Shown: positions 8,542-50,065, numbered from the stretch's first letter. The stretch is DNA of 50,550 bases from a virus (IMGVR_UViG_3300027719_000008:1-50550), one strand, 5' to 3'. Program-made: numbers and translations. The notes: generated by a model from the sequence alone, not told the origin.

Positions 8542-8569
8542 TTGACATGACAACCCGCATACGTATAGT
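8542..8569 (+). promoter_or_regulatory. Sigma70-type promoter for replication genes
   Basis: TTGACA-N16-TATAGT in intergenic gap. Confidence 0.7.
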
Positions 8570-8595
8570 TAATAACTATACACAAGGAGACGCGA

Positions 8596-8751: not shown

Positions 8752-8752
8752 C

Positions 8753-12971: not shown

Positions 12972-13539
12972 TGGAAGCTGGAGAGATTGTTACGGTCAAT
13001 GGAGTCAAGTACACTATTCGCAGGATAGCAGCGCCGCTGTCGTATTGTCCGCCAAGCGATCCGCGTCCGGATTTACTGGCCGTCCTTGATCGCGTTGCGC
13101 CAAAGCCTGACATCCGGTGGGAGCGGATTCCGGATTATGTGACGCATCTATCCATCGAACCAAGCGGACTCCGTGGAGAACGTGTTCTTGTTTTTTATAA
13201 TCGAAACTACAAGGGCGATGATTGGGCGTTCCCAAACTGGCGCGATTTCATCGGGAAGACGTTCGAGAGGCCGAAGGGAGGTGAAGCGTGAAGAAAACCG
13301 ACATCCGAACACTGATCGACTCCATGCGCTTGCTTGCGCGTGACATCCAGAGCGAGGACGGAGTTGCAAACATGGCGATCCGTGAAGCCGCCGACCGCAT
13401 GGATGATATGCTGGCCTGTATTATGGCTCGCATCCCGGTGCAATGCCGGAAGGATAAGCGGTACGATAGCATCACATGCCGCGATTGTGAGAGCGCAGGA
13501 ATGTGCCAGTGTCTGGGAGGGTACGATGATGGGAAATGA
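12971..13539 (+). CDS. Two hypothetical proteins (12971..13291; 13288..13539)
   Basis: Coupled ORFs with GGAGG SDs. Confidence 0.6.
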
Positions 13540-14005
13540 TGACATCTGTGCCGTGTGCGGGAAAGAGATGTGCGGTGCATTTGTATCGCATCCGTTCTTG
13601 CGCATATGCTCGCATGATTGTTTTGATCGTCGCCAGGCTGCTGAGTTGCAGTATCTGTGGAAGATGCGGGATGATCTATTGATGCGGATGGACCAGCGAG
13701 ATGAAGTAGAAGGCATCAAGCACGACGCCGGAAAGCACCGCTACGACCTGTTGCCCCCGGATGCGCTGGAGTACATGGTGGATGTGTTCACCTATGGCGC
13801 GCGCAAGTATGAAGATCGTAATTGGGAAAAGGGTATGAAATGGGGCCGTGTGTTTGGAGCAACCATGCGGCACTTGTGGGCATTCTGGCGCGGGCAGGAT
13901 ATTGATCCTGAGAGCGGACTGCATCACATCGCGCACGCTGCCGCGAATTGCCTGTTCCTGCTGGCCTATGCCATGCGCAAAGTTGGGGAGGATGACCGGC
14001 AATGA
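13526..14005 (+). CDS. dATP/dGTP diphosphohydrolase domain protein (DUF5664-like)
   Basis: KHDAGKHRYDLLP, YGARKY..RNWEKG, RHL, DPESGLHHIAHA. Confidence 0.88.
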   Translation: MMGNDDICAVCGKEMCGAFVSHPFLRICSHDCFDRRQAAELQYLWKMRDDLLMRMDQRDEVEGIKHDAGKHRYDLLPPDALEYMVDVFTYGARKYEDRNWEKGMKWGRVFGATMRHLWAFWRGQDIDPESGLHHIAHAAANCLFLLAYAMRKVGEDDRQ

Positions 14006-14708
14006 GCCTGATCTACTTCATCCGGCAGGGAACGCCAGAGGTTGCGCCTATTACGGTATTCCCGGAGCAACTTTTCAATGACATGCTGGCAAGGTATTAT
14101 TTGATTCAACATGGTGGCCCTTCTTTTGTGCCCATTGGGAATACCGCGTTATATGTAATACGCGGAACATGTCCGAAGTGTGGTAAGCGGCGACTGAAAC
14201 GGAATCGCTGTGTTCTTTCGAGATGTCGCAAATGCAAGTGGAAGCCGATACCAAGAAAGGAATCATCATGAAGATTGAAGTCGGAGGTCAGTATTTTGGG
14301 CGCTATGTCGTATGCGCCTACATCGGCAGCAAAGTGGATTGTCCCGTCTGTGGGAAGCCTATTTTCAAGGGAGCCTACACGAAGCGCGGCATTCCGAAAC
14401 TCGTGCGCTTCGCATGGAATGAGGACGGAACCGATCATCGGTCGTGTCGCTTGGATGACAACCAGGCTATCGAGACGGGAGGGCTAGCGGAGTTGTACGA
14501 TTTCAGTCTCTGGGGCGTCGATGTCCAGATTGGATGCCGATACAAACTCCATGGATTCGGCGACAAGAACATGGCGCGCCACGAATGCACGATTGTTGAG
14601 CGGACAAACGACGGTCTTTTCGTTGACGAGGAAGGATTCCACTACTACCAAGGAGGCATGTGTACATATGGTTTGCGAAGTAACGACATCATGGAAGTGA
14701 TCGCATAA
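14002..14708 (+). CDS. Two Zn-ribbon-like hypothetical proteins (14002..14271; 14268..14708)
   Basis: CPKC / CPVC motifs; coupled starts. Confidence 0.6.
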
Positions 14709-14715
14709 GACAAAG

Positions 14716-14750
14716 AAGGGACAACCGCGAGGCTGTCCCTTTCTTCTTTG
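14716..14750. terminator. Intrinsic terminator between convergent operons
   Basis: AAGGGACA..TGTCCCTT stem followed by T-rich tract, A-rich upstream. Confidence 0.8.
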
Positions 14751-14769
14751 CGATCCTCTTTCTACCGTA

Positions 14770-15519
14770 TCAGGATGCTTTTCCCTTTCTATTCCTGACG
14801 GCATCGAACACCGAACGCACCGCCGAAAACGTCACGGGCCCACCATGCCAGCGCGTGTACCCGTACTCTTTCAATGCAGCCGTGATCTTGGGCGCTGAGT
14901 ATCCTTCGGCGTGCCACTTTTCAATCAGGCCGATGATATGCTGCTCCGACTCGCTCTTCCGGAATGCCTTGTGGCGGCGCACCCCTTTCTCGTTGACGAC
15001 GAAGCCCTGCGTCGGATCGGCCTCATAGCCGAAGGGGATCTTGTCCTCGCCGAATATGACAATCCCGTTTTCCATCGCGCGCTGATGGACAATCGACGTT
15101 CTTTCGGCAATGCGCGCGCGTTCAAACTCCGCAAAGCCCGCGAACATGGTCAGCAGCATCTTGCCGATCGGTGTTGACGTATCCAGCGGAACGCCATTGA
15201 AATCTGCCACAGCAAGAGCGCATCCCTTTTTCATCCAGAGATCGACCGTCGATAAAGCGTCAGAACACACGCGGAAGCCTCTGTCCAGCGTTGAGAGGAT
15301 CACAAGGGAACATTCACCCTTGGCGACCGCCGTGTTGATCCTTGAGCCTCCGGGACGCTTTCCGAAGGCTATTGTGCCCGATGTCGCTTCATCCTCGACG
15401 TATTCGATGGAGTCACACGCCAACCCCTTTCCAGCGGCATAGCGTGCGATGACTTCCCGTTGCGCGTCAATTGTTCTGATTTGCTTGCCGGTGGATGCGC
15501 GGATATAGGCAAAGATCAT
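14770..15519 (-). CDS. Serine recombinase (resolvase catalytic domain plus partial recombinase domain)
   Basis: AYIRAST..Q, SG...RPG, LDRGFR, FAEFERARIAERT, PFGY. Confidence 0.92.
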   Translation of the reverse strand: MIFAYIRASTGKQIRTIDAQREVIARYAAGKGLACDSIEYVEDEATSGTIAFGKRPGGSRINTAVAKGECSLVILSTLDRGFRVCSDALSTVDLWMKKGCALAVADFNGVPLDTSTPIGKMLLTMFAGFAEFERARIAERTSIVHQRAMENGIVIFGEDKIPFGYEADPTQGFVVNEKGVRRHKAFRKSESEQHIIGLIEKWHAEGYSAPKITAALKEYGYTRWHGGPVTFSAVRSVFDAVRNRKGKAS

Positions 15520-15830
15520 GCTCTTTCCCCTTTCGCTTTGGAGATTGCATCCAGCGCCATGCGATGCGCACGAGGATCATTGGGATTCGCCTGAATCTCC
15601 ATCAATGCAGCCAGCATATCCGGCGCGGCAGCAATCAGGCGAGCGTTTGACGCTTGTTCCGGAGACAGATAACGATATGCGCCCGGAGAGCTTTCTTCGT
15701 CCTGCCCGCGAGCGTATGCTATTGCGAATGTTGCGCAATCGGAAAGGCACGTATGATACTGATCAGCAGGAATAATGGCAAAAATGCCTGATCGGATATC
15801 AGCTTTCCAAGGCCCAGGTGTGTGATTCAT
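15516..15830 (-). CDS. Phage hypothetical protein (HTPGPW...ANARLIAAAP type)
   Basis: MNHTPGPW...NARLIAAAPDMLAAL. Confidence 0.8.
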   Translation of the reverse strand: MNHTPGPWKADIRSGIFAIIPADQYHTCLSDCATFAIAYARGQDEESSPGAYRYLSPEQASNARLIAAAPDMLAALMEIQANPNDPRAHRMALDAISKAKGERA

Positions 15831-31160: not shown

Positions 31161-31784
31161 ATGGCAACATTCGCGTCATTGCGTTCTCAGCTTCTGGGCA
31201 TGGAAGGACATGACCGTTCCGATATGGCCTCGCTGACGCTGGACGCGAACCTGGCGCTCAACGCCGCCTATCGGGAACTCTGCCATATGCAGCCGTGGTG
31301 GTTTACCGAACAAACTGAAACCATTACTGCGGCAGGTGGTTACCTGATTCTGTCTCCAACGACAATCCATGTCCGCGATGTCTACGATGCCGACGGCAGC
31401 CGTGTCGTGCATCGGACGCGCGGGGGGCAGATTCGATGGGCGGACAACCTGTCGTATCTGGAGACAACCTCGTGGGCGATTGCCGGATACGATACGGGCA
31501 CCAATGCCATGCGGTTACATCTTGAACCCGCGACCGCAGGTGTGTATACTGTCCTGTCAGCGTTCATGCCGACGGAGATGGCGGCAGACTCCGATGTTCC
31601 GCTCGGGCCTCCGCTGGTTGGGGATTTCATCCTGTGGTCAGCACGGCAGGATCGCTTGAAGCGGGATGAAGAGCGGCAGTATCTGGACATGACGGCGCAG
31701 CAGTACCGGCAGCAATACCTCAACGAATTGAAGCACATGCACGCGAAGTTGTCGCGAGAAGATGGGCCGTTCTTTGCGAGGTGA
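31161..31784 (+). CDS. Head-tail adaptor / tail tubular protein A-like
   Basis: MATFASLR...LNAAYRELCHMQPWWF...DSDVPL; position. Confidence 0.7.
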   Translation: MATFASLRSQLLGMEGHDRSDMASLTLDANLALNAAYRELCHMQPWWFTEQTETITAAGGYLILSPTTIHVRDVYDADGSRVVHRTRGGQIRWADNLSYLETTSWAIAGYDTGTNAMRLHLEPATAGVYTVLSAFMPTEMAADSDVPLGPPLVGDFILWSARQDRLKRDEERQYLDMTAQQYRQQYLNELKHMHAKLSREDGPFFAR

Positions 31785-31786
31785 GC

Positions 31787-34138
31787 ATGTCAACCGAAAA
31801 CCCCGAAGAACCTGACATCCGGCAAGCGCGCTTCGGTGGGATCAACAAAGCCCTGCCGATGTACAATGTTCCGTTGGGGATTTTCCCTGACGCGCGGAAC
31901 ATGGTCACGTATGCCCGTGAAGGGTATATGGAGACGCGACCGGGGTATCAGGTGGCCTCGCCACGGGTGGAGGTCGATCCCTTCGCCATGCTTGGCGGCG
32001 TGGAGGGTGGCCTCGTGATCGTCGTTCCGGGTGATCCGACCGACGAGGACTTGGAAGGCGACTTCGTGATGTCGGTGGAGGACTCCAACTCTACCATCAT
32101 GTATTACAAGACCGGCAAGTGGTATGGGTACGACCCAAGCGCCACGATGATTCAGGCGACGGGAAGCCTCCTGTTCACGACGTATGGCGGCGACGACCTC
32201 GGCATTGAAGCCGACGAGTATACATGGCACCATTACGTCCTCTGGGGCACCGGCGACCATACCACAACCACGGATGTCACCTATACCGATCAGGCGGCCT
32301 CCAAGACGCTCACCTTCATCCTGCCGCCGGACGATTCCTTGGGGTCGTATGGCACGCTCGTCTCGTCATGGGACCGGGGCGACGGCACGATTCTCAACGT
32401 CTACTACTACGGCACGGCCACCATCACAGCGTCGGGCGTCGATACGAACGACGACACACGCACCGTCTCGAAAACGTTTGCCATCCTCTACTTCCCCGGC
32501 AGCGTTGGGGGTGGTGGCGGAGGTGGCGGTGGCGGCACTGAGGAGGACGAGACGGAGCCGGAGGACGAAGAAGAGGACGACGACGATACAGACGATGGGG
32601 ATGACGGCGAGGATGGCGACGACGGGGATGATACCGACGAACCGACCATCTCGATCATCACGCCGCCGACCATTACGCCGCCCGACTCGCCGCCGATTGT
32701 CCCGCCGGACGATCCTGATGAACCCGATGAACCGGGGGGTGGCGACGACGAGGACATCAAGACCGACAAGATTCAGTTGATTGTGACGGCTCCGGAGACG
32801 GTCCAGCACAACGGCTACTTCTCCTTCACGGTGACGGCGAAGAATCTCAAGACGGGCATGATGGTGGCGCTGCCGGGCGTTCCGACATTGCGCGCCTATC
32901 TGCCGACGGATTACATGCCGGGGTTGAAAACGTCCAGCACCTATTACACCGAAGCCCGTTATCTGATCGACACCGCCGCAGCGACAGGGGTGTTCAGCAA
33001 CGGAAACACCGTCTGGACGATGACGAATGCGCGGTTCAACCTGCCGGAGACGCCGGACGATTCGTATGACCTCGTGACGAACGTGCGCGCGGTCATCTCG
33101 GCGACGATCCTTGGCAATAAGAATTACCTCCAAGGCGGCACCATGACGAATGTGGTGCGCCCGATTCCGACGCTTTCCGTCAATCTTCACACGCTGGACC
33201 TGGATGGACTGGATGGCCGCGAGTATGTCGGCTTCACCGGCACGAATGCCTACTCCTCCACGATCATGCTGTGGGTCACGCAGACGGCGATGGCAGGCGT
33301 GGGCGGAACGTTCATCCCGTTCGACATCGTGCTGTATGCCGCGTCGATGGTGGGGGCATCCGCAACGATGACGTGGGGCAAAGCCTGCCCCGGCCCGACA
33401 TGGGTGGAAGGATCGAGCGTGTCACTGGGCAGTACCGCCAGCGGATACCCGTCGATTCCGTCTGCTGTCTTTGAGTCGGGCGACGGCGTGGCCCTCGTCA
33501 AGCTGACAGTGGCATGGAGCGGCACGGCGGCAGATCCGGACAATGGCATCTGGCCGTGGTATGTCGATGACAATTGGACGGGCTTTGAAGTGTTCGCCAT
33601 GCTGCCGTCCTATCTGGAGCAGAATCGCGCAAGCCTGAGCAATGACGCCTTCAGCGTGACCAAACAGACATCCTCCGGGGTGGCGTTTGCCAGTGCGCGC
33701 CAAATCCTTCTGGGGATGCAGTATGCGAAGGTTGGCCTCCCGGACGATTACGTGAGCGTGGACGAGGATTTCTATCAGGAATACGTGTGCGCATCCGGAC
33801 AGACGTGGGCTGTGGATGCCGTCCTGTATGACCCGGATCATGAAGTCTCGCGGCGCATTACGGGCGGCTTCACCGTGGTCGGCGGCACGGACACCTATGC
33901 CATGACCGCTGGCGTCATCAATGACACGGCGACTCCGGCGATTGCGATCCCGTCCGGCGAATGGCTGCAATCTGACGACTTGGACGAGGACTTGGTAACG
34001 CCGCGCTTGGGCGACCGCGACTTGTATATCTACGGGTATGCGCCGGGGAAGTGCTTGGCGACGACCTATGACCTCTATCGCGAATGCGGTGCAACAGACG
34101 TTGACAAATACGACACGTACCGCGAGTGCGCCGGATAA
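31787..34138 (+). CDS. Tail protein with nozzle-like N-terminal peptide, acidic/Gly/Pro linker and beta-rich domains
   Basis: FGGINK...DARNM...GYMETRPG; poly-Gly and D/E tract at about 32505-32760. Confidence 0.6.
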   Translation: MSTENPEEPDIRQARFGGINKALPMYNVPLGIFPDARNMVTYAREGYMETRPGYQVASPRVEVDPFAMLGGVEGGLVIVVPGDPTDEDLEGDFVMSVEDSNSTIMYYKTGKWYGYDPSATMIQATGSLLFTTYGGDDLGIEADEYTWHHYVLWGTGDHTTTTDVTYTDQAASKTLTFILPPDDSLGSYGTLVSSWDRGDGTILNVYYYGTATITASGVDTNDDTRTVSKTFAILYFPGSVGGGGGGGGGGTEEDETEPEDEEEDDDDTDDGDDGEDGDDGDDTDEPTISIITPPTITPPDSPPIVPPDDPDEPDEPGGGDDEDIKTDKIQLIVTAPETVQHNGYFSFTVTAKNLKTGMMVALPGVPTLRAYLPTDYMPGLKTSSTYYTEARYLIDTAAATGVFSNGNTVWTMTNARFNLPETPDDSYDLVTNVRAVISATILGNKNYLQGGTMTNVVRPIPTLSVNLHTLDLDGLDGREYVGFTGTNAYSSTIMLWVTQTAMAGVGGTFIPFDIVLYAASMVGASATMTWGKACPGPTWVEGSSVSLGSTASGYPSIPSAVFESGDGVALVKLTVAWSGTAADPDNGIWPWYVDDNWTGFEVFAMLPSYLEQNRASLSNDAFSVTKQTSSGVAFASARQILLGMQYAKVGLPDDYVSVDEDFYQEYVCASGQTWAVDAVLYDPDHEVSRRITGGFTVVGGTDTYAMTAGVINDTATPAIAIPSGEWLQSDDLDEDLVTPRLGDRDLYIYGYAPGKCLATTYDLYRECGATDVDKYDTYRECAG

Positions 34139-34147
34139 GGAGCCGCC

Positions 34148-35091
34148 ATGAGTGCTGAGATAAAAATCACCGCGCAGACCACGCCTCCAGCCGTCGTCAA
34201 GGTGAACGGGAAATGCTATTCGCTGGCGCAAGCGGCGGTTCCGGGTAAGCCTGATACGGCCATTAGCGATATCACCAATACCTATGCGACGTGCGCAGCG
34301 TGTCTTGCATCGGGAAGCGTTCCCGCAACGTGTCCGTGCAGTACGTCGTGGGGCACGTTCCCGTGTGGCGGCGATGGTGAGAATATCCTTGGCGTCTATG
34401 ATATTACTATTGCGGATGCCGTCTCGACCGCCGCCTACACGCATATCTCGACCGACGTTGCAGAGATTTCGAATATCAGCTATTATGCCGCAACGCCGTG
34501 CTTCTGGTTTTTTAACGGTGTTGCTGATCTTCGCGTTCCGGATACGGATATGCGGGTTGACGAGATGGCCATCCAATTGGTCGGCTCGTCCTATTGGTTG
34601 TTTGCCATTACATCCGGCGCCACCCATGGCATATGGGTCAAGCGCGATGGTGACAATCCGGACGGAACATACACGCTCTGGCCAAACGGAACGGAAGAAC
34701 CGACGACGCATTATACGTCAACTATTATCTCCCCGACCACGATGGAGATTTCAGCGCCATGATCGACATTGATTTCGTATGCCAATTCATGCTGCGTGAT
34801 CCGAACCGCAAGACGGTCGGATGCCTGCGCCAAGTCTTTGGCCCATTCCCAAACATTGCGACGTGCGCGCGTGACTGTCGCGGCAATCCGGACGCGATGC
34901 AGGCGAAGCAAGCCAGTGCCGCGAAGATTGCAGCCCTTCCGCGATGTGAGTTTCTGGACCTCAAGACCGGCGAATGCGATGATCCAGAATTGACGACCGA
35001 GCAATGCGTCCAGTTGAAGGGCTACACATGCCGACACTTCGTGCAGAAGCAAGTCATTCCGTGCGCAGCCTGCGGCGATAAAGGAGCCTGA
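34148..35091 (+). CDS. Two Cys-rich hypothetical proteins (34148..34762; 34759..35091)
   Basis: SD-led, coupled ORFs in tail region. Confidence 0.65.
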
Positions 35092-35093
35092 GG

Positions 35094-37016
35094 ATGGCAA
35101 CTCCTGAGACGGTCTTTGAGCAGATTCCGGAAGCGTGTGTCGTGGATAACACGCTCTATCTCATTGCCAATCATGAGATGGTCAAGTCTGTCGCCGGTGC
35201 GCGCTATCCGTGGGGCGTTCCGATCAGCAAAGTCAACCTCGCCTATTCGTCTTGCACGACAGGCGGCAGCATGGTCCGGGGCCGCTATAAGCTGTGCGCC
35301 GTCCCGGAGAACATGCTTGGCCGTATCGGGAACCCGTACAAGACGGATGCCAATTTCATCCCTCTCACGGTGCAAACGCAGGTCTATACGACCGCTGCCA
35401 CCAACATCAAGATTGTCGTGACGGTGCCAACGCATCCCGATAGCCAGGTCAAACGCTGGCTCATGTACCGGACCAAGGTGGATGAACTCGGCCCGTACTA
35501 CTATGCCGGAGAGGTGGACGAGGGCACCACGACGTTCACGTTTGACGACGGGGATGACGCGCTGCCGCTCAACGACTTCCTTGATGGCCCGTACAGCGAC
35601 GACGATTCCACGTTGGCGGGACCATTCATCTATGGCCGTCCGCCTGTGCATAGCTATATGCTCCATGCCTACGGCGACACGATGTTTGTGTTCGGCGCGC
35701 GCCCGTACCGGAAGGGGCTGGCAACAGTCACGGTCGGCTCCACGCTCGTTACGTTCTCGGAAGCGATCATCGACGGTGGCGGGAATACGGCCACGGTCAC
35801 AGCCAACACGACGCTTGGTATCAAGTGGACATCCGGCCTCGTCCAGCAGCGGCCCCCGCAGATCATCACGCCGGATGTGAGCCAACGCTTTCTGGGGCAT
35901 CGCTTCAAGCTGGATGACTCCGGCCTCTCCTACACCATCGCCAGCGTCGTGAGTAAGAACAGCGTGCGCCTGAATACCGCGTACCTGGCGGAACAGAACC
36001 AAGCGGCTGGCACCACAATCACGGGCGCCTATACCATTGTTGCGAATCAGAACATCGTCTGCCCCTCGCGTCCGGGGGAGATGGAATACTTCTGCCCTGC
36101 CGAGCAATTCTCCATCGGCGAAAGCACGGGAACAACGCTCCGTGGCGGCATCAGCTATGCCGGGGATGCGCTCCTGTTCACCGAGAAAACCATCTACCGT
36201 GTCGTCAAGGGCGTCAATCCCGGCACGCACGAAGTCTACGAAACGCTCTCGAACTATGGCACCATCGCGCATCGCAGCATCTGTCAGACGCCGCGCGGCA
36301 TTGCGTTCTTCACCGGGGATCACATTGCGATCTACTCCAACCAAGTCTCCACGCTGATCTCCGAACCCTTGGGCGATCTCCTCAAGAACAGCAACCCAGA
36401 CCTCAAGGAATGGGTGATGTGTAAGGTGGTGGACAACCGCCTCTACGTGGCGTTCGCAGCCGAGGATTCCGTCTACATGGACTCCATCGTGGTGTTCGAT
36501 TTCAATACCGGCGCGTGGGACCGGTGGGACGGCTTGCAGATCGTCAACATGCAGTGCATCACGAGCAAGAAAGGACAGAACCGCCTGCACATTCAGGTGC
36601 CCGTCGGCAATGACGGCTATGCCGCGCACTACTTCACGCCGAATGCGTTCAACGACGGCTTCGGAAGCGTCTATCTGGGCGGCACCGTCCAGAATGCCAC
36701 GGCGACAACCCTGACCACGACGGGCACGTTCCCGACGGTCGGCTCGCACGGATGGGACTTGCGCGGGATGCGCGTCAAGATTCGCGAAGGCGTGGCCGCT
36801 GACGAGAAGCGCCGGATCATCGCCAACACCTCCAACAGCCTGACGGTCGGCGTGCCGTGGGATACCGTCCCGGCGGTCGGCGACGAGTATACCGTGGGCC
36901 AGATCGAAAGCTACTTCCGGACAGGGCGGCAATCGTTCCCGGACCCGCAGACCGAACATGTGATGAAGGACGCGGAGATGCGTATCTCCTACGTCTCGCT
37001 CAAAACCACGCCGTAA
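35094..37016 (+). CDS. Tail nozzle / tubular protein B (P22 gp10-like) core
   Basis: LLFTEKTIYRV, YGTIAHRSI, ISEPL, FDFNTGAW, IESYFRTG. Confidence 0.7.
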   Translation: MATPETVFEQIPEACVVDNTLYLIANHEMVKSVAGARYPWGVPISKVNLAYSSCTTGGSMVRGRYKLCAVPENMLGRIGNPYKTDANFIPLTVQTQVYTTAATNIKIVVTVPTHPDSQVKRWLMYRTKVDELGPYYYAGEVDEGTTTFTFDDGDDALPLNDFLDGPYSDDDSTLAGPFIYGRPPVHSYMLHAYGDTMFVFGARPYRKGLATVTVGSTLVTFSEAIIDGGGNTATVTANTTLGIKWTSGLVQQRPPQIITPDVSQRFLGHRFKLDDSGLSYTIASVVSKNSVRLNTAYLAEQNQAAGTTITGAYTIVANQNIVCPSRPGEMEYFCPAEQFSIGESTGTTLRGGISYAGDALLFTEKTIYRVVKGVNPGTHEVYETLSNYGTIAHRSICQTPRGIAFFTGDHIAIYSNQVSTLISEPLGDLLKNSNPDLKEWVMCKVVDNRLYVAFAAEDSVYMDSIVVFDFNTGAWDRWDGLQIVNMQCITSKKGQNRLHIQVPVGNDGYAAHYFTPNAFNDGFGSVYLGGTVQNATATTLTTTGTFPTVGSHGWDLRGMRVKIREGVAADEKRRIIANTSNSLTVGVPWDTVPAVGDEYTVGQIESYFRTGRQSFPDPQTEHVMKDAEMRISYVSLKTTP

Positions 37017-37022
37017 GAAAGG

Positions 37023-37430
37023 ATGCCTGACATGGATGCGTTGTTGAGTAACCCGAATGTGATGGACATGATTCTCAGTGTGGTGGCGATGGTCATCTCC
37101 CTTGGGTGGGCGTGGATTCGCCGGAACGAGAAACTCCAGAACGCCACGCTCCAAAAGGCGATGGACTGCATTGCGGCTGGCGTGCAGGCGTCGTATGACG
37201 ACTATGTGCGTTCCATCAAGGATGCCAGCGCCGACGGCAAGCTGACCGACGAGGAGCGCAAGACGGCCCGTGACATCGCCATGAATCGCGCCATTGCCTA
37301 TGCCAAGAATCAGGGTGTCGATCTCCTGAAAGTGATCGGGGCCGACCTCCTGCCGATGTTCATGGAACGCTACATCCTCAAAATGAAGGGTGCCAGCGCC
37401 GACGTGATCGAACCGGAAATCCTGAAATGA
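37023..37430 (+). CDS. Holin-like protein
   Basis: Single N-terminal TM (MILSVVAMVISLGWAWI), DGKLT..E...A. Confidence 0.65.
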   Translation: MPDMDALLSNPNVMDMILSVVAMVISLGWAWIRRNEKLQNATLQKAMDCIAAGVQASYDDYVRSIKDASADGKLTDEERKTARDIAMNRAIAYAKNQGVDLLKVIGADLLPMFMERYILKMKGASADVIEPEILK

Positions 37431-37564
37431 AGTGGCTCTACGGAATCCTGCAAGCGGTCATCGGAAGTCTCCTTGACTTCTGGTGGAAGAAGAAGGAGGA
37501 GAGCCATGAAGCTGTTCGTATGGCTGATAGCCGTGACACTCTTGATGACGGCGAGCGGTTGTAG
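37427..37564 (+). CDS. Short inner-spanin-like membrane protein (45 aa, not in ORF track)
   Basis: MKWLYGILQAVIGSLLDFWWKKKEES...; overlaps downstream lipoprotein. Confidence 0.45.
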   Translation: MKWLYGILQAVIGSLLDFWWKKKEESHEAVRMADSRDTLDDGERL

Positions 37565-37769
37565 TGATCTGATCGGCATGTTCCGCGCGAAGAAGCTCTA
37601 TGTCGGCGCGGGGCAGTATGCGGAGATTGCAAAGCCCATCAAGATTCCGGTATGGATCACCAACGGAGACACCGGCAAGAAGGAACACCGCATCGTCGAG
37701 GCCCAGGCAGGGTGGCTCGTCGGGCGGCAAAAAGGCGACCCGAAAACCGTTGCAAGCGGGGATCGGTAA
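37506..37769 (+). CDS. Lipoprotein, outer-spanin-like
   Basis: Signal peptide with lipobox ASG-C; GGAGGAG SD. Confidence 0.6.
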   Translation: MKLFVWLIAVTLLMTASGCSDLIGMFRAKKLYVGAGQYAEIAKPIKIPVWITNGDTGKKEHRIVEAQAGWLVGRQKGDPKTVASGDR

Positions 37770-37793
37770 TATCTCAAGGAAGGAGGCGGCATC

Positions 37794-38054
37794 ATGGCAG
37801 ACGACGGCACCTGCCCGTCACACGGGCGACTGACACAGCAGCTTGATCGCATCGAGGAGAAATTGGATTCCTTCAACGACCGGCTCACGGCTGGCTCAGT
37901 GATGTTCGAGAACCATGAAGGTCGCATCCGATCCTGTGAGGCGCGCGCAACCGCCGATGGACTCAAAGCGAACGACTGGCGCAAGGCTGGCATCGACATC
38001 ATCAAGGTCATCGGGCTGGCTGGACTCAGCATCGCGTTGGGGATGAAGTTATGA
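37794..38054 (+). CDS. Coiled-coil protein with C-terminal TM (XhlA-like)
   Basis: LDRIEEKLD...HEGRIRSCE, hydrophobic C-terminus. Confidence 0.6.
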   Translation: MADDGTCPSHGRLTQQLDRIEEKLDSFNDRLTAGSVMFENHEGRIRSCEARATADGLKANDWRKAGIDIIKVIGLAGLSIALGMKL

Positions 38055-38195
38055 TCTGCCGCAAGTGCAGCCGCCCACTGACCGCCACGGAAGTCTATCA
38101 CTACGGCGACTTGTGCGCGTCCTGCATCTTTGTCGGCTACCACCAAAATGAATGCTACTGGAAGAATAAGTATCACCATGAAAAGGAGCAGCGTG

Positions 38196-38702
38196 ATGGC
38201 ATCCGGAACGCTCACCCTGACCCAGATCACCACCACGGGCACGATCCTCGTTGAGTTTACCGGCGCGGCGACGTTTGCGACCGGCATCCTGAACGTCGAG
38301 AATACCCGCACCGGCGTCGTCGCGACTTCGGCGGTGGTCAACGGTGCCAACACCATCACGGTGGACGGTGGCACGCGCTATGCCATCTACGTCGAAAGCT
38401 ATGATGTGACACCGGCATTCCTTGGGGTGAGCAACCATCTTATTATTACGACGCCCTCTATGATGAACGGAACCGCATGGCCGGTCATTGAGACGGAATG
38501 GCGGACGGATCGCATTACCGAATGGCAGTCGGTCCTCTCGTCGCTCTCGGATGAAGATCGCGTGACGCTGGCCGTCAACAGTCGCGGCTATTGGTACCAG
38601 CAGCGAACGCGATGCACGGAACAGAATGCTCGGCTTGTGGTGCATGGCTTGAAGCTGAACATGCGCATCAAGGGACGTGGCGAGGAGGCGCGAAGTGCCT
38701 AA
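38196..38702 (+). CDS. Tail protein whose C-terminus resembles a nozzle C-terminal segment
   Basis: AAGGAG SD; RVTLAVNSRGYWYQQR...LVVHGL. Confidence 0.55.
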   Translation: MASGTLTLTQITTTGTILVEFTGAATFATGILNVENTRTGVVATSAVVNGANTITVDGGTRYAIYVESYDVTPAFLGVSNHLIITTPSMMNGTAWPVIETEWRTDRITEWQSVLSSLSDEDRVTLAVNSRGYWYQQRTRCTEQNARLVVHGLKLNMRIKGRGEEARSA

Positions 38703-38991
38703 GGGATTCAACGTCGAGAATCAACAACTGAATGATTGGCTGAATCGCATCGAGCGCGATGTGCATTCCAGCAATGCCAGCATTCAGACGATCCGGACGA
38801 CATTGACATCCGTGGAAGGCGAAGTCGGCGCGCTGGAGGAGGAGGTTGGCATCGTCTCCTCGTATCTCGGCACAGTGAATATCGACGGGGGTTCCCCGGA
38901 AGCAATCTACCTGGCGACACAGCACATTGACGGCGGCGCTCCGGATGATGTCTATACGTCCGGGCAGTCTCTTGACGGAGGAACACCATAA
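38695..38991 (+). CDS. Small tail-associated protein with DGG repeats
   Basis: LNDWLNRIE; three (I/L)DGG motifs; GAGGAGG SD. Confidence 0.6.
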   Translation: MPKGFNVENQQLNDWLNRIERDVHSSNASIQTIRTTLTSVEGEVGALEEEVGIVSSYLGTVNIDGGSPEAIYLATQHIDGGAPDDVYTSGQSLDGGTP

Positions 38992-40874
38992 TGGCCCAGC
39001 AGATTCAATGGCGTCGAGGAACTGCCGCAGCGTGGACCGCAGCCGATCCGATCCTGGCCGACGGTGAGGCAGGGTATGAAACCGACACGGCGATGTTCAA
39101 GCTCGGTGACGGCACGACCGTCTGGAGCGCGCTGCCATACTCGGCCACGAGCGGTGCGGCATCCGGCATCACGTTCAGCAATACCGCGAGCGGACTGGAA
39201 GCCGACAATGTGCAGGAAGCTATCGACGAGCTTGTTGCCGTCCCGAAGTTTTCAGCCGGATGTGTGACAGAGCCGACCTACACCAAGACAAGCGATTCGC
39301 TGATTACGGTCGATGCGGTTACGGTCTATCTGTATAAGACGACGGACTTTTCTGGTGGCATTTATCAGTATACGCTCGCATCAAAAGCCTTGGCGATGAC
39401 GGATAACGTGACGAATTATATCGTCGCCAAATACAATGCCGGGACGCCAACGCTGGCGGTAACGACATCGGTTTCCGACATCAACGAAAGCGATGTGATT
39501 CCGGTCTTTACGATCCCACGTACCGGATCATACTGGCATGTCGTTCCGTGGGATACGTTGGGGCTTGGCGCGGTGTCGAAACTGCATTACGCCGAAGTGA
39601 AAACGGATCGGTATCGTCGCGAATACGGACTGGCGTTTGCTGTCAATAGCAGCTTGCAAGTCTCTGTTGACGCCGGAAGGGTATGGATCGCAGCCAATGC
39701 GGTGACTGTTGATGCGGCATCCAGTGCAACGGATACCATGTTCTTCTGCTACCACAGCAGCAGCGCATGGACCTATAGCATTGTGACGACGCTCAATAAT
39801 ACACAATACGACAACGGAACAGGGCTGGCCACGCTGACGGCAAATCGGTATGCCGTGAACTGGATCTATCGTGGCGTCGAAACACAGAAGCACATTTATG
39901 TGACGCTTGGGACGGGTGACTACACGCTGACCGAGGCACAGGAAGCGCAGCCTCCGTCTCCGCCTGACCTTATTTCCAGCCATGCCGTATTGATTGGCAA
40001 GGTCATTTACCAGAAGTCGAGCAGCACGTATTACAGCCTCCAGTCAGCGTTTGACACGGCGTTCGTAACGGCTGGCGTGACGGATCATGGCGACTTGACG
40101 GGACTCACGGAAACAGCCGTCCATCCTGCCGCGTCGATCAGTGTCGATGCCAGCGGATTCACCGGCAACCTCTCCGCGTCGGATACGGACGTGCAGACGG
40201 CGCTCGAAACCATCGACGCGATGACATCCGGCTCATTCTCGCTCTGGGCGGATGTTGCCAGCGTGACGCGGACGGATAGCAATACGTTCGCCAAGGCTGG
40301 ACTGGAAAGCGTCCTGCCCGTCGGAACGCACGTTCGATCCTACAGCGGCACCACGCGCCCCGTTACAACGTCAACAGACTGGAAGCATCATTACGTTATT
40401 TCCGTTGGAACGGACGCCGTGGATGTGATCGGTGAAGAGATTCCGACCGGCGGGACAACGCTGTTTGTGGAGTATTCGACGGACATTGCATCGACGATGA
40501 AGTTAGAACTTAGAACGCTTGGTGGGGCGTGGGCGGCTGAAACAAGTACAGGGTTGGTAAACAATCCTGCTTTCAATGGACATACCATCGTTTGGTCGGA
40601 GCCGACTGCGCGCTTGATTGGAGCAATGCAGATTAAAAGTGTGACCGATGATACCGGGGCGGCGCAACCGACGATCATGCCAACGGCAGGCGGAACTGAT
40701 TTGCTTGGCGGCGCTGTAACTGTTGTTGATTCGTCCTATGCTAATACCGGCGTCATCGCGTCCGGGCAAGCCGTAAGTAACGGGGAAGTGATTGACGTTG
40801 ATTGTGAGTCAACCGGGACGAACGCCGTGAGTTTTGGTATGCGAATCCAATTCCTGATTGCGAGGCACATCTAA
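38991..40874 (+). CDS. Tail fibre with Mtd-type N-terminal domain
   Basis: QIQWRRGTAAAWTAADPILADGEAGYETDT..FKLGDG...WSALPY; NVQEAIDEL / DVQTALETI repeats. Confidence 0.85.
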   Translation: MAQQIQWRRGTAAAWTAADPILADGEAGYETDTAMFKLGDGTTVWSALPYSATSGAASGITFSNTASGLEADNVQEAIDELVAVPKFSAGCVTEPTYTKTSDSLITVDAVTVYLYKTTDFSGGIYQYTLASKALAMTDNVTNYIVAKYNAGTPTLAVTTSVSDINESDVIPVFTIPRTGSYWHVVPWDTLGLGAVSKLHYAEVKTDRYRREYGLAFAVNSSLQVSVDAGRVWIAANAVTVDAASSATDTMFFCYHSSSAWTYSIVTTLNNTQYDNGTGLATLTANRYAVNWIYRGVETQKHIYVTLGTGDYTLTEAQEAQPPSPPDLISSHAVLIGKVIYQKSSSTYYSLQSAFDTAFVTAGVTDHGDLTGLTETAVHPAASISVDASGFTGNLSASDTDVQTALETIDAMTSGSFSLWADVASVTRTDSNTFAKAGLESVLPVGTHVRSYSGTTRPVTTSTDWKHHYVISVGTDAVDVIGEEIPTGGTTLFVEYSTDIASTMKLELRTLGGAWAAETSTGLVNNPAFNGHTIVWSEPTARLIGAMQIKSVTDDTGAAQPTIMPTAGGTDLLGGAVTVVDSSYANTGVIASGQAVSNGEVIDVDCESTGTNAVSFGMRIQFLIARHI

Positions 40875-44437: not shown

Positions 44438-47400
44438 ATGCCATTGACCCCGGAAGAGGTGCTTGGATTACGCGCAAGGCTGTCCTCGAAGCCCAACTAT
44501 GCTGTTCCGGAAGCCTCATTTGGTGAGTTTATTGCCCCAATTGTGGCCCCGTTGACACTGGCCGAGCGCGCCGGTGGCCTCGTCTACAACAACCTTGGCC
44601 TTCCGCTCATGGGTGGAGCCATGCGTGCCGTCGGCATTGATGCGGATAGCGTAGCAGGGCAGGCGCAGTTGGATCGCGAGACATCGGTGAACCCAGACGT
44701 GACCTCCATGCGCGGCTGGATAGGATTGCTTGGCGTCGGGCGCGAAGGCGACACCGGATATACGAACGTCGAGACGGGCGCACCAGTGCGGGGCGCGAAC
44801 ACGCTGGAAGCGATTATGAATGCCCAAGGCGGCGATGTCGAGGGCTTCTATCGTGATTACGGAGTTCCCGGCCAAGTGGCTATGACGGTCGGCTCCATGG
44901 GGCTTGACCCTCTCAATGCAACCGCCATCGGTGGTGGCGTCAAGGCCGCATGGCAAGCCAGCAAGATTCGCGCCGGACTCCGTGGAATCAAAGGCGTGGA
45001 TGCAGCAGCCGATGCACAGCGTGCGGAATACCTGGCCGAGCAGCTTGGCAATCTCTCACCGCAGGGGCAGTCGGGCCTCGAACGCTTTGGCCGAGCCCTG
45101 ATTGGCGAGGAACAGGCCAGCGACTTCTTCCAGCAGGGCCGTGTGTTCAACCGGACGCCGGAGTTCAACATGGCTGGCGAGGTAGGGCCGGAGACGTTGC
45201 GCTCACGCATGGGCCTGAATCTCATGGACCGGCTTGCAGAGCGCATGTACCCGGATGCAAGCGCGGACTTCCTGCAACGGGCCGCTGATGCTGATGCGGA
45301 ACGCATTGCCGGGATTCGCTATGATCGCTGGCGTGATGTCCATCGCCCCGTCCCGGATCGTCTCCAGCAGATTCCGGAATGGGGAGGCATGGCCATCGAG
45401 AATGTCGATCCACGCATGATGCGCGTCATCAATGACACGATGCAGAATATGGACATGCCGAGTCAAGCGGTTGTTCCGCCGAGCCGTCAGCTTCCATTTG
45501 AGAACTCAGCAGCCGCCGACCTCTCAGCCAGGATGCAGCGCATGATGTCACCCGAAGAGCGCATGGCATGGGAGATTCCGGAATATGTTCCGGATACCAG
45601 CATGGCCGCGCGCGAGGATTTGGCCGCACGGATGCGCCGATTCCAGCAGCCTGAGCCAGAACGCACGCCGTGGGAAGCTCCTATTGAACAGACTCCAGCT
45701 CCGGTCCAAGAGGCCGTATCCGCACCCGCCCTTGACCTCGCAGCCCGGATGCGCCGCGCCATGACGCCCGCCAACGTCGAGGTGGCTCCGGTCCGACCGA
45801 CCGCGCGGACACCATGGGATGCCGCCGAGGATGTCCCGGAGCCGGTTCGCGCCGAAGTGACCATGCCGGTCGCGGAAGCGCCCAAGATCGCAGAGACGCC
45901 AACGCAGAAGCTAGCGCAACCCAAGACTGCCGAACAGCTTGCGAAAGAGGCGGAACTGGAGGCGCGCGCCAAGGCTGTAAATCCAGAAGCCAAGGCCAAG
46001 CGCGATCCGTATGCCGACATTGACGAAGCCAGTATCAAGAAGGCATCGGATGTACTGATGTCCGAACGTGGGCAGAAGAATCTCAATGCGCTCGCCCGTC
46101 AGTATGGGTTGGAGCCGGACGAGATGATGAGTGAGTTGATCATGCCGTTGGCGAAGCGTGCCGCCACGTTTGATCCGAAGCTTGGGAAGGATGAAGCGAC
46201 CTATCTTGCCAACCAGATGTCGTATGCCGCCAAGGATGTGCGCCGCAAGCAGGATGTCATTGCCGCGCGCGAGGCCAGCTACAACAAAGAGGTGGGTGAA
46301 GGCGACGACGCTATGCAGATCGTGGATACAATCGCCGACCCGACAGCCGCAACACCCGCACAGCAAGCATTGCGCGGTGAAACGGAATCCGCCTTCATGA
46401 AGCTCGTGCGATCCAGCAAGCAGCCGGAACGTGCGGAGTCGATTGTTGCCGCCCTGACGGACCAGATGGATACCAAGGGCCGGATGAATGTTGCCGCACT
46501 GAGCGAGACGACGGGCTACACGCCATCGACGATCCAGCGGGTGCTGGACGATCTCCATGCGCGCGCGATGGATGCTGGCATTGAGCCTGATGTCAAGTTC
46601 AAGACCGTCCGCAAAGCCTTTGTCCGTGGCGTGGCAAAGGATGATCTCTTGAAAGCCCCCGGCGTCAAAGGCGTCGAGGAGCTTGGAGATAATGACTTCC
46701 GAGTGACGTTCAAGAACGGCAAGACGATTGACGTGCGCACGAATGCGAACATCGAATTGCGCGCCGCTCCGGACTTGGTGGCTGGCCGCACGATCACCGT
46801 GGCCGACCCAAAGACGGGCCAACAGATCAACGTGGACTACACGCGCTTTGCGGACCAATCCACGATCAACCACGAACACGTCCATGTTGCGCGGTCGATG
46901 GGCCTGTTCACCGATTCCGAGTGGTCCAAGCTCGTCTCGACCTATGCCAAGAACATCACGGATGAAGTCCGGATGGAGGAAGCCGTCGCCAGTGGACTGG
47001 AGAAGATCGGTGGCACATTGGCACAGCGGATCAAGGAGTTCCTGGGAAAGCTCTACGAGGCCATCACAGGCGACACTTCCGCATGGTCAACGCAGGGCCG
47101 CTGGCGCAAGGGCGAGGTGTTCCGGCGCGAGAAGGTGGGCGCGGCCCGGACGGATGGTGTGCGGTATCAGACGCAGGCTCCCGACTGGCGCACAACCGGC
47201 GATGCCATCCAGAATATTGCCAAGAAGATGGAGACGGCTGGCGATGCTCGTGACATGGAACCGGCTGGAGTGCTCGCAAGCGCCAAGCGTCTCTTCACCA
47301 AGGAAGGCTTGAAGGCGATCGAGGATAAGCTGGCCCCGCAACTGTGGGATGCAGCCCATATGCTCATGACGCGCGGCTTCCGTCCGCTGGAGGATATCCT

Positions 47401-50065
47401 CTCTCCGGCCCAGAAGATCACGGGCAAGGCCGACATTACTGGACAAGGCAAGGGCGGAGCGGGACTGGCCGAAATGCTGTTCCGCACGAAGGAAGGCAAA
47501 GCAGGCCGCTTGCAGGCCGTCATGAAGGGCGAGACGCCGCTCTCTGTGTACATTGGGAACGAGAAGAAAGTCTACTATCAAGGCAACGCCGTCGAGAACA
47601 TCCTTGGTCCGGCCAAGCAGTTCCTTGGGAAGGGCGCGAGCGAGGCCGACTTCCAAGCTATCATCCAGATGGCCGATGTCGCCGGGGTGAGCCAGCGGAT
47701 TCGGCAAGAGCGCGACCTGATGCAGGCGGCGATTGCACGCATTGGTGAAGGCAAGGGAACCGATGCCGACTTCACGCGGTTGGCGAAGATGGGATACGAG
47801 AAGCCGTCGGTACTCCGCGAGGGGTTGCAGGCGGACCTGGCTGGAACCATGCAGCAGCTTCGGACGGATGCGGCGAAGTGGGAAAAGACCATGATGCTGC
47901 GTTCCGGAACGGACTACGAGGATGCCCTGAGCGCCATTGAGGAGTTCAAGGCCAAGGGGATGCTGACGGAGAACACGGACAGCCCCGGCGTGCTGGACAA
48001 GGTGCTGGAGGCCGAGCGGAAACTCAGCAAGGCGAAGCTGGAATACGCGCGCGACAAGGGGATCATCTCGCAGGAAATGGCCGACGCCTATGCTAAGACG
48101 GGTGACTATTACACCCCTCTTGAACGCGTATTCGACGACCTCGAAAAGATGTCCGGTGGCAAGGGAAGCGCCACGGGGCAGTTCACGAATCAGGCACTTG
48201 GCAGCGAACGCCTTATCAAGTCGCCGATCAGTAGCGTCTTTGAAAGCCTCAATAAGTTGGTCCGACTGGCCGACGAGAACGAAGTCTGGCGCACGCTGAC
48301 GGATGATATTGATGACGCGAAGAAGCTGGTTGCCGCGCAAAAGGAAGATGCCAAACATCTCATTGGTGCCGAGAAGGGTGTTCCTGAGAATAAAGTTCTC
48401 CCTGATGGTGCCATTGCGGAGAATGAATCGTACATCGCCGAGACGGAGAAATACATCCAGCAGGTGAGTGGCGACGAACGCATGGCGAAGGATGTGATCC
48501 CTGTCATCCGGGATGGCAAGACGACGTATTGGCGCTTCGTGGACCCGGAGGCGCGCAAGACCTATGCTGCGATGCAGATGCACGCTCCATCGGGGTGGCT
48601 GGAGAAGGCGGCACGTTGGCCGTCCCAGGTGTTGCGGAAGTGGCTGGCTGCCTCCCCGCGCTTTGCCGCGTTCAATACGACGCGCGACACCTTCATGCGT
48701 CCGATCATCTCGGAACACGAAGGCAGCAAGATGTCGGATGTGTTGATGCAATGGACCGACAAGGCCAAGTATGAGGAGATGGACGAAGCGTTCATGCGCT
48801 CCGGCGGCTCACAGCAGGCCATGCTGAATGATCTGGAGGACGCCTACAAGGACGACATGAGCGGGTTCATCCGGAAGGCCGTCGGCACAAAAGGCACGAT
48901 GGTGGGCCTCCCGCAAGACCTGATCAAGTATATGAAGGGCGGATTCGATAAGGTGACGGCGCTGACGGGCAAGGGTGAAAAGCTGAATCGCTTGGCCGAG
49001 TACAAGGACGCCTACGAATACGCGATGAAGAACATCCCGAACATCACGCAACAGGAAGCGGAGACGTATGCTGCATTCCATAGCCGTAACCTCTTGGACT
49101 TCGCGCAGGCTGGAACGTTCATCCGGGCGATTAACAAGTATGTGCCGTTCACGAACGCCGCTATCCAAGGCTCGCGCGTGATGTTCCGTGCTGCCAAGAA
49201 TCACCCGAAGCAATTCGCCAAGCAATTCGCCAAGCTGATCGTGGCCCCGTCGATTGCGACCTATGGCATTGCACAAGCGGCAGGCCGTGAAGAGGAATAC
49301 CGTGCGCTACCCGCGTACCGGCGCGACTTCTTCTGGAACATACCGATTCCCGGAACGAAGCTGTGGTTCGCCATCCCGAAGCCGTTCGAGTTGGGCGTCC
49401 TCGGCACCACGTTCGAGCGCACCGTGGACTACGCATGGAAGGGTAACTTCGACGAAGCGTTCGCCGGTCACGGTGGATCGCTCGCCAAGGGCATGATTCC
49501 AGTCGATGAAGCCGCGTTCCTTGGTGCATTCCGTCCTGTTGTCGAAGTGCTGGCGAACCGTAATCTGTTCTACGATCAGCCGATCATTCCCTATTGGGAA
49601 GAAGGCTTGGATGTCCGCCTCCGCAAGGGCGCGCAGGGTGGCAGTCGCATCGGCAAGACCATGCAAGACCTGTTCAAGGTGGATTCCCGCAACGTCGATC
49701 ATCTCATTGGCGCATTCTTTGGCGACTATGGCCGACTGGCAACAAACGTCGGGAAGATCGGGCAGGATGTCGAGAACCCCATGACATTCGGGAAGTCGAT
49801 CATGAAGGCGTCCGGATTCGTGCGCGAGACATCACCGTGGGAGATTCAACCCGCGAAAGAGGCCATGCGCACGCAACAGCGCCTCGGCGTGCAGGCCACG
49901 AAGCCGTCGAAAGCGTTCCGCGACATCCTGAAAGAGGCGCAGGCCGGGACGCGAACGATGAAGGAAGCGATTGAAGCATCGCGTGCGGAGAAAAATCGGT
50001 TGTCGCAAATCACGATTGAGCAACGCATTAAGGAGATGTTCGAGAAATCGAAAAAGAAAAAGTAG
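44438..50065 (+). CDS. Giant polyvalent/ejection protein: sigma-like domain, HExxH metallopeptidase-like motif, LPD38-like C-terminus
   Basis: FDPKLG..ATY and HTH; NHEHVH; YVPFTNAAIQG; FAIPKPFELG; EVLANRNLF..QPI. Confidence 0.8.
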   Translation: MPLTPEEVLGLRARLSSKPNYAVPEASFGEFIAPIVAPLTLAERAGGLVYNNLGLPLMGGAMRAVGIDADSVAGQAQLDRETSVNPDVTSMRGWIGLLGVGREGDTGYTNVETGAPVRGANTLEAIMNAQGGDVEGFYRDYGVPGQVAMTVGSMGLDPLNATAIGGGVKAAWQASKIRAGLRGIKGVDAAADAQRAEYLAEQLGNLSPQGQSGLERFGRALIGEEQASDFFQQGRVFNRTPEFNMAGEVGPETLRSRMGLNLMDRLAERMYPDASADFLQRAADADAERIAGIRYDRWRDVHRPVPDRLQQIPEWGGMAIENVDPRMMRVINDTMQNMDMPSQAVVPPSRQLPFENSAAADLSARMQRMMSPEERMAWEIPEYVPDTSMAAREDLAARMRRFQQPEPERTPWEAPIEQTPAPVQEAVSAPALDLAARMRRAMTPANVEVAPVRPTARTPWDAAEDVPEPVRAEVTMPVAEAPKIAETPTQKLAQPKTAEQLAKEAELEARAKAVNPEAKAKRDPYADIDEASIKKASDVLMSERGQKNLNALARQYGLEPDEMMSELIMPLAKRAATFDPKLGKDEATYLANQMSYAAKDVRRKQDVIAAREASYNKEVGEGDDAMQIVDTIADPTAATPAQQALRGETESAFMKLVRSSKQPERAESIVAALTDQMDTKGRMNVAALSETTGYTPSTIQRVLDDLHARAMDAGIEPDVKFKTVRKAFVRGVAKDDLLKAPGVKGVEELGDNDFRVTFKNGKTIDVRTNANIELRAAPDLVAGRTITVADPKTGQQINVDYTRFADQSTINHEHVHVARSMGLFTDSEWSKLVSTYAKNITDEVRMEEAVASGLEKIGGTLAQRIKEFLGKLYEAITGDTSAWSTQGRWRKGEVFRREKVGAARTDGVRYQTQAPDWRTTGDAIQNIAKKMETAGDARDMEPAGVLASAKRLFTKEGLKAIEDKLAPQLWDAAHMLMTRGFRPLEDILSPAQKITGKADITGQGKGGAGLAEMLFRTKEGKAGRLQAVMKGETPLSVYIGNEKKVYYQGNAVENILGPAKQFLGKGASEADFQAIIQMADVAGVSQRIRQERDLMQAAIARIGEGKGTDADFTRLAKMGYEKPSVLREGLQADLAGTMQQLRTDAAKWEKTMMLRSGTDYEDALSAIEEFKAKGMLTENTDSPGVLDKVLEAERKLSKAKLEYARDKGIISQEMADAYAKTGDYYTPLERVFDDLEKMSGGKGSATGQFTNQALGSERLIKSPISSVFESLNKLVRLADENEVWRTLTDDIDDAKKLVAAQKEDAKHLIGAEKGVPENKVLPDGAIAENESYIAETEKYIQQVSGDERMAKDVIPVIRDGKTTYWRFVDPEARKTYAAMQMHAPSGWLEKAARWPSQVLRKWLAASPRFAAFNTTRDTFMRPIISEHEGSKMSDVLMQWTDKAKYEEMDEAFMRSGGSQQAMLNDLEDAYKDDMSGFIRKAVGTKGTMVGLPQDLIKYMKGGFDKVTALTGKGEKLNRLAEYKDAYEYAMKNIPNITQQEAETYAAFHSRNLLDFAQAGTFIRAINKYVPFTNAAIQGSRVMFRAAKNHPKQFAKQFAKLIVAPSIATYGIAQAAGREEEYRALPAYRRDFFWNIPIPGTKLWFAIPKPFELGVLGTTFERTVDYAWKGNFDEAFAGHGGSLAKGMIPVDEAAFLGAFRPVVEVLANRNLFYDQPIIPYWEEGLDVRLRKGAQGGSRIGKTMQDLFKVDSRNVDHLIGAFFGDYGRLATNVGKIGQDVENPMTFGKSIMKASGFVRETSPWEIQPAKEAMRTQQRLGVQATKPSKAFRDILKEAQAGTRTMKEAIEASRAEKNRLSQITIEQRIKEMFEKSKKKK

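Follow-up and report, generated by a model that had tools for sequence, protein, structure and literature searches.

IMGVR_UViG_3300027719_000008 is the entire record of a virus, 50,550 bp long and bounded by direct terminal repeats (hereafter the window, at its full length), and represents the complete genome of an uncultured short-tailed phage, or podophage. On its plus strand, three separate genes between positions 31,787 and 38,702 encode proteins that are homologous to different parts of a single-chain tail nozzle. P0001 (31787..34138) begins with a nozzle-type N-terminal arm, P0002 (35094..37016) is the nozzle core, and P0003 (38196..38702) ends in a stretch with homology to the final part of single-chain nozzles. 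The set of three open reading frames (ORFs), not any single one, matches the nozzle family. We consider it probable that the hexameric tail nozzle of this phage is put together from the products of three genes rather than of one. An initial annotation, made from the sequence alone, had proposed that the nozzle is split over these genes, and the motifs it quoted all occur where it placed them in the translations of 31787-34138, 35094-37016 and 38196-38702. The split is borne out by profile and fold for the core, by an E-value of 1.4e-7 for the arm and by E-values of 0.011, 5.9e-10 and 2.5e-6 for the C-terminal strands.

P0002 (640 amino acids, aa) is a homologue of podophage nozzles of the T7 gp12-P22 gp10 type and has their central beta-propeller, which carries inserted domains, and a small barrel. 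The protein lacks the N-terminal arm and nearly all of the platform. The motifs FTEKTIY, GTIAHRSI, ISEPL and IESYFRTG all lie within it, and the ORF stops 28 aa past the IESYF region. A search of 1.84 billion representatives found 229 relatives at E ≤ 0.001. A profile made from 52 relatives (A1) was compared with the PDB and matched GP4 (8jov_A, 8e-19), Pa223 (9nwi_Y, 4.6e-13) and the VP1 nozzle, both as gp16 (8zkk_O, 1.5e-10) and as 8zkm_E (about 1e-10). The AlphaFold2 model of P0002 has a predicted local distance difference test score (pLDDT) of 84.7 and a predicted template modelling score of 0.81. Foldseek ranks 1-15 for this model are without exception chains of podophage tail entries (A4, Pa223, Carin-1, E1004, PhiM1, VP1, SU10, GP4, P-SCSP1u, HRP29, LME-1 and Pan3), and P22, Sf6, T7, Kp7, Kp9 and the crAss001 muzzle appear in later rows. 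VIA alignments of the model with podophage nozzles give Z scores of 12.5-15.4. Unrelated WD40, DDB1 and other cellular propellers reach a Z of about 12 too, and the assignment of P0002 to the nozzle family therefore rests on profile and fold together.

Single-sequence PDB searches with P0001, P0002 and P0003 returned compositional or chance rows only. A tblastn search of 50,697 phage records (release of August 2025) found no match for P0001, P0002 or the relative P0033. Locus searches found no relatives in viral contigs with P0002, P0097 and P0024, nor in genome contigs with queries A3 and A4, and a metagenome scan for related loci yielded one 3-kb contig. The PHROGs names of the core family are inconsistent ('virion structural protein' in 27 of 52 and 'internal virion protein' in 26 of 52, with 'head closure Hc3' and 'tail fiber protein' also occurring), so database names are unreliable for this family. 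Residues 228-257 of P0002 (35775-35864), about 30 residues inside an insert, are modelled at a pLDDT below 50. This insert is full-length in P0002 only, much shorter in the 70%-identical P0004 and missing in the remaining eight close relatives.

The first deficit of the core is at its N terminus. An arm with the pattern F-x-G-G-I/L-N ... A-x-N ... R-P-G is present in cis in 50 of 150 relatives. A hidden Markov model (HMM) of this arm gives no match on P0002, which begins directly at the first blade, as do its nearest relatives. The VIA alignments begin at a model residue between 1 and 7, which is paired with a chain residue between 52 and 97, in nine solved nozzles (P22, Pan3, Pam1, GP4, Pa223, VP1, Carin-1, LME-1 and phage A4). 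SU10 is the exception, with an aligned range that starts at residue 531 owing to internal insertions. The initial annotation had asked whether 35094..37016 might cover the full fold by itself. It does not: there is no arm, the tail is 28 aa long, and coverage extends over residues 90-377 of the 471 in P22 gp10 (378-471 remaining uncovered) and 74-336 of the 445 in Pan3.

The second deficit is at the C terminus. We defined tail length as the number of residues after the last core domain (P0002 525-612), the end of which is locatable in 115 relatives. The distribution is bimodal: 18 relatives have 21-30 aa and 83 have 85-140 aa, while 13 have longer tails and one has 47 aa. P0002, with 28 aa (36930..37013), belongs to the short group. 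Its tail equals roughly the first 20 positions of a 111-position tail model, matching the consensus there (F-x-D-P..E..K..E-x-R) by eye only and giving no HMMER score against the model. It is probably one platform strand. A one-chain platform, in which N-terminal strands and the C-terminal domain stand together, is not present in P0002.

Among the 150 relatives, 32 combine an arm with a long tail, 32 have a long tail on a core that starts without an arm, and 10 have neither arm nor long tail; arm-less relatives that start at the core, with either tail, number 42. The sole relative with an arm in cis and a short tail is P0097 (602 aa; tail of 22 aa), which has the C-terminal split only, as in phage A1002 discussed below; the rest are fragments or other forms. 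A FastTree phylogeny of 50 core segments unites the ten short-tailed cores in a single group with a support of 100, so that the tail split arose once. This tree kept 50 of 151 rows, with most arm-in-cis rows dropped by the filter, and its count of five arm gains or losses is indicative.

The missing arm is found on P0001 (the 'N-handle'), which comprises 783 aa from the ATG at 31787 or 785 aa from a GTG at 31781. Behind its nozzle-type arm the protein has other domains that amount to about 700 aa. The FGGIN..ARN..ETRPG motif occupies residues 18-55 of the 785-aa ORF (nucleotides 31832-31945). An HMM made from the arms of family proteins only, with seeds expanded by search to 50 sequences, matches residues 17-56 (FGGIN..PDARN..ETRPGY; 31829..31948) at E 1.4e-7 against the 714 stop-to-stop ORFs of the window, and the runner-up is at 0.03. 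The conserved strands run on to about residue 87 (nucleotide 32041). Beyond this point P0001 has no detectable relatives: word-index searches with the whole protein and with residues 1-235 returned itself only, and the phage records gave nothing. The ESM Atlas holds no match above 0.77 for residues 1-238, and for the beta-rich residues 330-785 it gives weak Ig-like leads only (0.83-0.85). A low-complexity linker at residues 241-335 (32501..32785), with a run of ten glycines, an acidic stretch and a proline-rich stretch, accounts for all PDB matches of P0001, which are compositional.

The missing C-terminal strands are found on P0003 (the 'C-handle', 168 aa), which consists of an N-terminal beta-sandwich and then the stretch that corresponds by homology to a single-chain nozzle's end, closing with VTLAVNSRGYWYQQR..VHGL. 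An HMM of 83 long tails ranks P0003 first among the 714 window ORFs, at E 0.011, with residues of about 92-165 (38469..38690) on tail positions 52-108. Its orthologue in a related phage contig, L004 (11970-12458, 162 aa, 30% identical end to end, blastp 7e-17), scores 5.9e-10 on the same HMM over positions 16-107. Aligning a profile of the two orthologues to the tails with hhalign gives E 2.5e-6 and a probability of 88.8%, with residues 121-165 on tail columns 76-121. The AlphaFold2 model of P0003 has a mean pLDDT of 63, with block means of 73-87 at residues 11-70 and below 50 at residues 114-131 and 149-168. Residues of about 5-105 fold as a beta-sandwich and the homologous C-terminal stretch is of low confidence. 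Foldseek with this model gave weak FN3-like rows only (E 3e-3 and above). A MAFFT alignment that placed the start of the tail on the N-terminal half of P0003 was not relied on, because in the model that half is a sandwich of its own. Complex prediction of P0002 (A2) with P0003 (A5), run without controls, scored 0.20 and 0.24 against a mark of 0.32, and these scores tilt the case for binding in neither direction.

A canonical full-length model of 685 positions was built from 24 relatives of at most 800 aa that have both an arm and a long tail. P0001 residues 3-67 fall on positions 1-64 (E 5e-4 against the 714 ORFs). P0002 falls on positions 183-584, with a start that extrapolates to about 106, and the L004 core on 120-584. 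P0003 residues 113-161 fall weakly on positions 642-682, and the L004 C-handle on 624-679. At the level of sequence, the three ORFs cover the single-chain nozzle model in order and without overlap, also with P0002 taken at its widest, over about 106-606. The consecutive coverage that the initial annotation had called for is thus found (1-64, about 106-584 and 642-682, the last weak), and the two flanking proteins map to the ends of the model.

The three-piece layout recurs in L004, a contig with only 28-30% identity to the window, from a phage whose capsid, core and giant proteins are 25-30% identical to those of the window. Its genes follow the order adaptor-position gene, 518-aa arm protein, 407-aa ORF, short-tailed core, C-handle protein and fibre. 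The 518-aa protein matches the arm HMM at 1.9e-7, its arm is 38% identical to that of P0001 over 45 aa (E 2e-6), and an acidic and proline-rich linker follows directly after this arm. The genes between the pieces differ between the window and L004, and the three pieces are kept.

Intermediate arrangements occur in further contigs. L012, L013 and L015 encode arm-less cores that keep a long C-terminal tail (tail HMM E 1.9e-15 to 5.3e-7), and in all three the ORF directly upstream (394-449 aa) starts with the arm (E 1e-6 to 4e-8). In L012, two tandem arm ORFs precede one arm-less core (8427-8723, 99 aa stop to stop, 1.5e-7; 8651-9997, 449 aa, 1e-6), which suggests that two or more accessory proteins can vie for, or share, a single docking site. 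L014 encodes a fused 1071-aa ORF (8810-12022) with an arm (28-120), a glycine-rich repeat insert of about 260 aa and a core (382-1061), and this is the natural fused counterpart of the two-gene arrangement. Past the arm of about 85 aa, the arm-bearing proteins of five contigs have no detectable similarity to one another. This fits the earlier proposal that the small fragments act as docking handles for accessory domains.

Solved nozzles indicate what the two missing pieces would build. By the published descriptions, the platform of T7 gp12 is a jelly-roll made of the C-terminal domain and three strands from the 45-residue N terminus, and it binds the adaptor (PMC6702177); in SU10, each platform touches two adaptor subunits (PMC9509320). 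The two pieces missing from P0002 are therefore two halves of one domain, as the platforms described for T7 and SU10 join the N- and C-terminal parts of the chain. Single-chain nozzles (T7 gp12, P22 gp10, Sf6 gp8, SU10 gp17, GP4 8jov_A, VP1 gp16 8zkk_O and Pa223 9nwi_Y) have the propeller fold and profile homology in common with P0002. They differ from it in that both ends of one chain supply the platform, whereas P0002 has neither end; in the 32 relatives with arm and C-terminal tail on one chain, these are the same elements as the handles of the window. The SU10 nozzle was considered as a fused analogue of arm, extra domains and core and was rejected: its extra Ig-like domains are described as sitting between blades 2 and 3 (PMC9509320).

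The closest published case is the Pseudomonas podophage A1002 (PLoS Biol, November 2026), whose split nozzle consists of the nozzle-rope gp39 and the nozzle-base gp42 (PMC13730344). According to that description, experiments found that the truncated nozzle-base is completed by strands from the C terminus of a second, fibre-docking protein. The window resembles A1002, as described, in its truncated core, in platform and propeller strands carried by another protein that bears long accessory, fibre-docking domains, in nozzle genes that are not adjacent (fibre genes lie between them in A1002) and in complementing strands, putative in the window, that are C-terminal, as in P0003. Like the A1002 core, P0002 is truncated in platform or blade strands, here at both ends, and the missing strands are placed by sequence on a second protein with accessory domains in P0001 and likewise in P0003 and its L004 orthologue. 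A1002 differs in having two parts, with a base protein that is described as retaining reduced N-terminal platform strands (residues 3-43), whereas the window phage has its arm on a third protein; its 'rope' is given as 620 aa, in contrast to the 168 aa of P0003 (PMC13730344). No A1002 chain is among the PDB matches of the core profile A1 or the tail profile A7. The two-gene loci L012, L013 and L015 also have an arm of about 85 aa at the start of a protein of its own, whose later domains vary and whose gene lies upstream of an arm-less core. Their cores are long-tailed and the arm gene abuts the core gene, whereas in the window the tail is detached as well and other genes separate all the pieces. 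The window is a three-part variant that is new relative to the published two-part split nozzle of A1002.

We infer that the three pieces bind each other and form one platform in trans. P0002 hexamers would form the channel, with P0002 supplying the beta-propeller core that lines it. The platform, the beta-sandwich by which the nozzle sits on the adaptor, would be assembled from the P0001 arm, the end strand of P0002 and the C-terminal strands of P0003. As the handles are fused to other domains, rebuilding the platform would also fasten those domains at the adaptor-nozzle junction: the P0001 body of about 700 aa would be anchored on a flexible tether, and the small sandwich of P0003 next to the fibre. 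P0001 and P0003 thus probably clip extra tail parts onto the virus.

The alternative that survives best, which we nonetheless regard as unlikely, is that P0002 is a complete, reduced nozzle and that P0001 and P0003 are independent accessory or fibre anchors, whose nozzle-derived termini dock elsewhere, for example on the adaptor, with no shared platform. The frequency of arm-less cores among the relatives implies the viability of cores that have no arm in cis, the N-terminal sandwich of P0003 folds on its own in the model, and P0003 stays beside the fibre gene rather than the core gene. Against independent anchors, an arm-bearing ORF lies upstream of the core in all five arm-less loci with enough context (the window, L004, L012, L013 and L015), and a short tail and a P0003-like gene occur together in both genomes with enough context. 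The breakpoints, moreover, fall inside one structural domain as described for T7 and SU10, leaving P0002 with one orphan platform strand.

It is very improbable that P0002 alone is nozzle-related and that the resemblance of P0001 and P0003 to nozzle termini reflects chance or composition. In its favour, P0003 taken singly is marginal on the tail HMM, and hhalign of the single sequences against A1 gives no match for P0001 and a weak one for P0003 (E 0.061), in which residues 144-182 of a 190-aa reading fall past the end of P0002. It is countered by the E-value of the P0001 arm, by the same N-terminal motif in the positional counterparts of L004, L012, L013 and L015 and by the score of the L004 C-handle; the reverse search with the P0003 profile also touches, weakly, only the extreme C-termini of three family proteins. 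Least credible of all is that the pieces are joined by splicing, inteins or programmed frameshifting, or that they reflect an assembly error or a decaying gene, since nothing was found in favour, the intervening DNA consists of ordinary ORFs with ribosome-binding-site-like sequences upstream and differs in L004 while the pieces are kept, the whole window gives no match at the gathering score to any Rfam family, those for introns among them, stop codons bound each piece (those before P0002 lie 12 nucleotides upstream of its start), and the 10 rows of short-tailed cores make up a single well-supported group.

Several observations weigh against a three-chain platform. The layout is known from two genomes only, the window and L004, and in L003, which has a short-tailed core, the 1.5 kb of downstream sequence contains no P0003-like ORF. 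P0003 by itself is marginal on the tail model (E 0.011) and has a domain E-value of 0.07 on the full-length model, and the case for its C-terminal strands rests on one orthologue. The tail/P0003 profile (A7) finds no solved nozzle in the PDB, so that equating the long tail with the platform's C-terminal part depends on its position in the chain and on the literature. None of the three ORFs has a match at positions of about 65-105 of the full-length model. Finally, the arm seeds were picked with a pattern written after the motif had been seen; the full-length model, built without the coordinates of that pattern, likewise puts P0001 at positions 1-64.

The three genes lie in a plus-strand structural module that opens with the large terminase, an SU10-type portal, an SU10-type capsid protein and three small ORFs. 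P0001, two Cys-rich ORFs, P0002, three small membrane proteins and P0003 follow, and the module ends with a 104-aa coiled-coil ORF, an Mtd_N-type fibre, a LamG protein and an 1875-aa protein with an LPD38 domain. The portal and capsid genes give, by position only, the upstream context for a hexameric nozzle on a dodecameric adaptor under the portal. Directly upstream of P0001, where an adaptor gene commonly lies, 31161..31784 encodes a 207-aa protein that may be this adaptor, again by position only. It has no Pfam, PHROG or PDB sequence match, its profile also finds nothing in the PDB, and it is 30% identical to the product of L004 6554-7207, which has the same position there.

The two Cys-rich ORFs between P0001 and P0002 (34148..35091; one of 204 aa that has 7 Cys, the other of 110 aa that has 10) had no matches in family searches, and the counterpart spot in L004 holds instead the 407-aa ORF, which is rich in Thr, Ser and Ala. 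Between P0002 and P0003, 37023..38054 encodes three small proteins (135, 88 and 86 aa), each with a single hydrophobic segment and the middle one with a lipobox-like signal. They are a putative holin/spanin set at most, with no Pfam match at E ≤ 1 and no endolysin domain there or elsewhere in the structural module. The initial annotation was right about Cys-rich genes between the pieces, and the lysis cassette it named there stands only in part, as the three hydrophobic-segment proteins. In the region 37023-38254, a 67-aa Cys/His-rich ORF overlaps the start of P0003 with its end, in another frame. In L003, a similar coiled-coil ORF with a C-terminal hydrophobic segment stands directly after the core gene.

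Directly downstream of P0003, 38991-42147 is a receptor-binding cluster. It begins with the 627-aa tail fibre (38991..40874), which has an Mtd_N-type N terminus (Pfam Mtd_N, 1.7e-12) and matches PHROG tail fibre families. Next come a LamG-type protein (1.1e-11) and an ORF that matches DUF4376 weakly (4.3e-4, under the Pfam cut-off). In L004, the fibre gene (12458-15784) abuts the P0003 orthologue. The 1875-aa protein (44438-50065) has a C-terminal LPD38 domain (1.5e-21), matches phrog_9854 (4.9e-41) and shares 25-29% identity with L004 18142-21762. In all probability it is an internal virion protein that is ejected.

Short phage tails have the nozzle as their conserved hub, and it has been regarded as a single protein, with one experimental exception, A1002, described in November 2026 (PMC13730344). 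The window phage would represent a second, more extreme design, in which both halves of the adaptor-binding domain are on other proteins. Cores without an arm occur commonly in uncultured phages (42 of P0002's 150 relatives), and annotation pipelines will mislabel such genes, as the PHROGs names 'internal virion protein' and 'virion structural protein' for the core family illustrate. Whether the nozzle platform is in general a divisible three-chain beta-sandwich, with the arm of about 85 aa and the C-terminal strands as portable handles that have repeatedly been detached, re-fused and joined to unrelated domains, is in our estimate an evenly balanced question. If it is, the adaptor-nozzle junction would offer a general plug-in mounting for new fibres and binding modules, and the lineage of the window phage would be the furthest along, its core left with a single platform strand. 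The short handles are a candidate means of swapping host-binding modules onto the tail, and in laboratory phages they could provide defined tags by which domains are grafted onto podophage tails.

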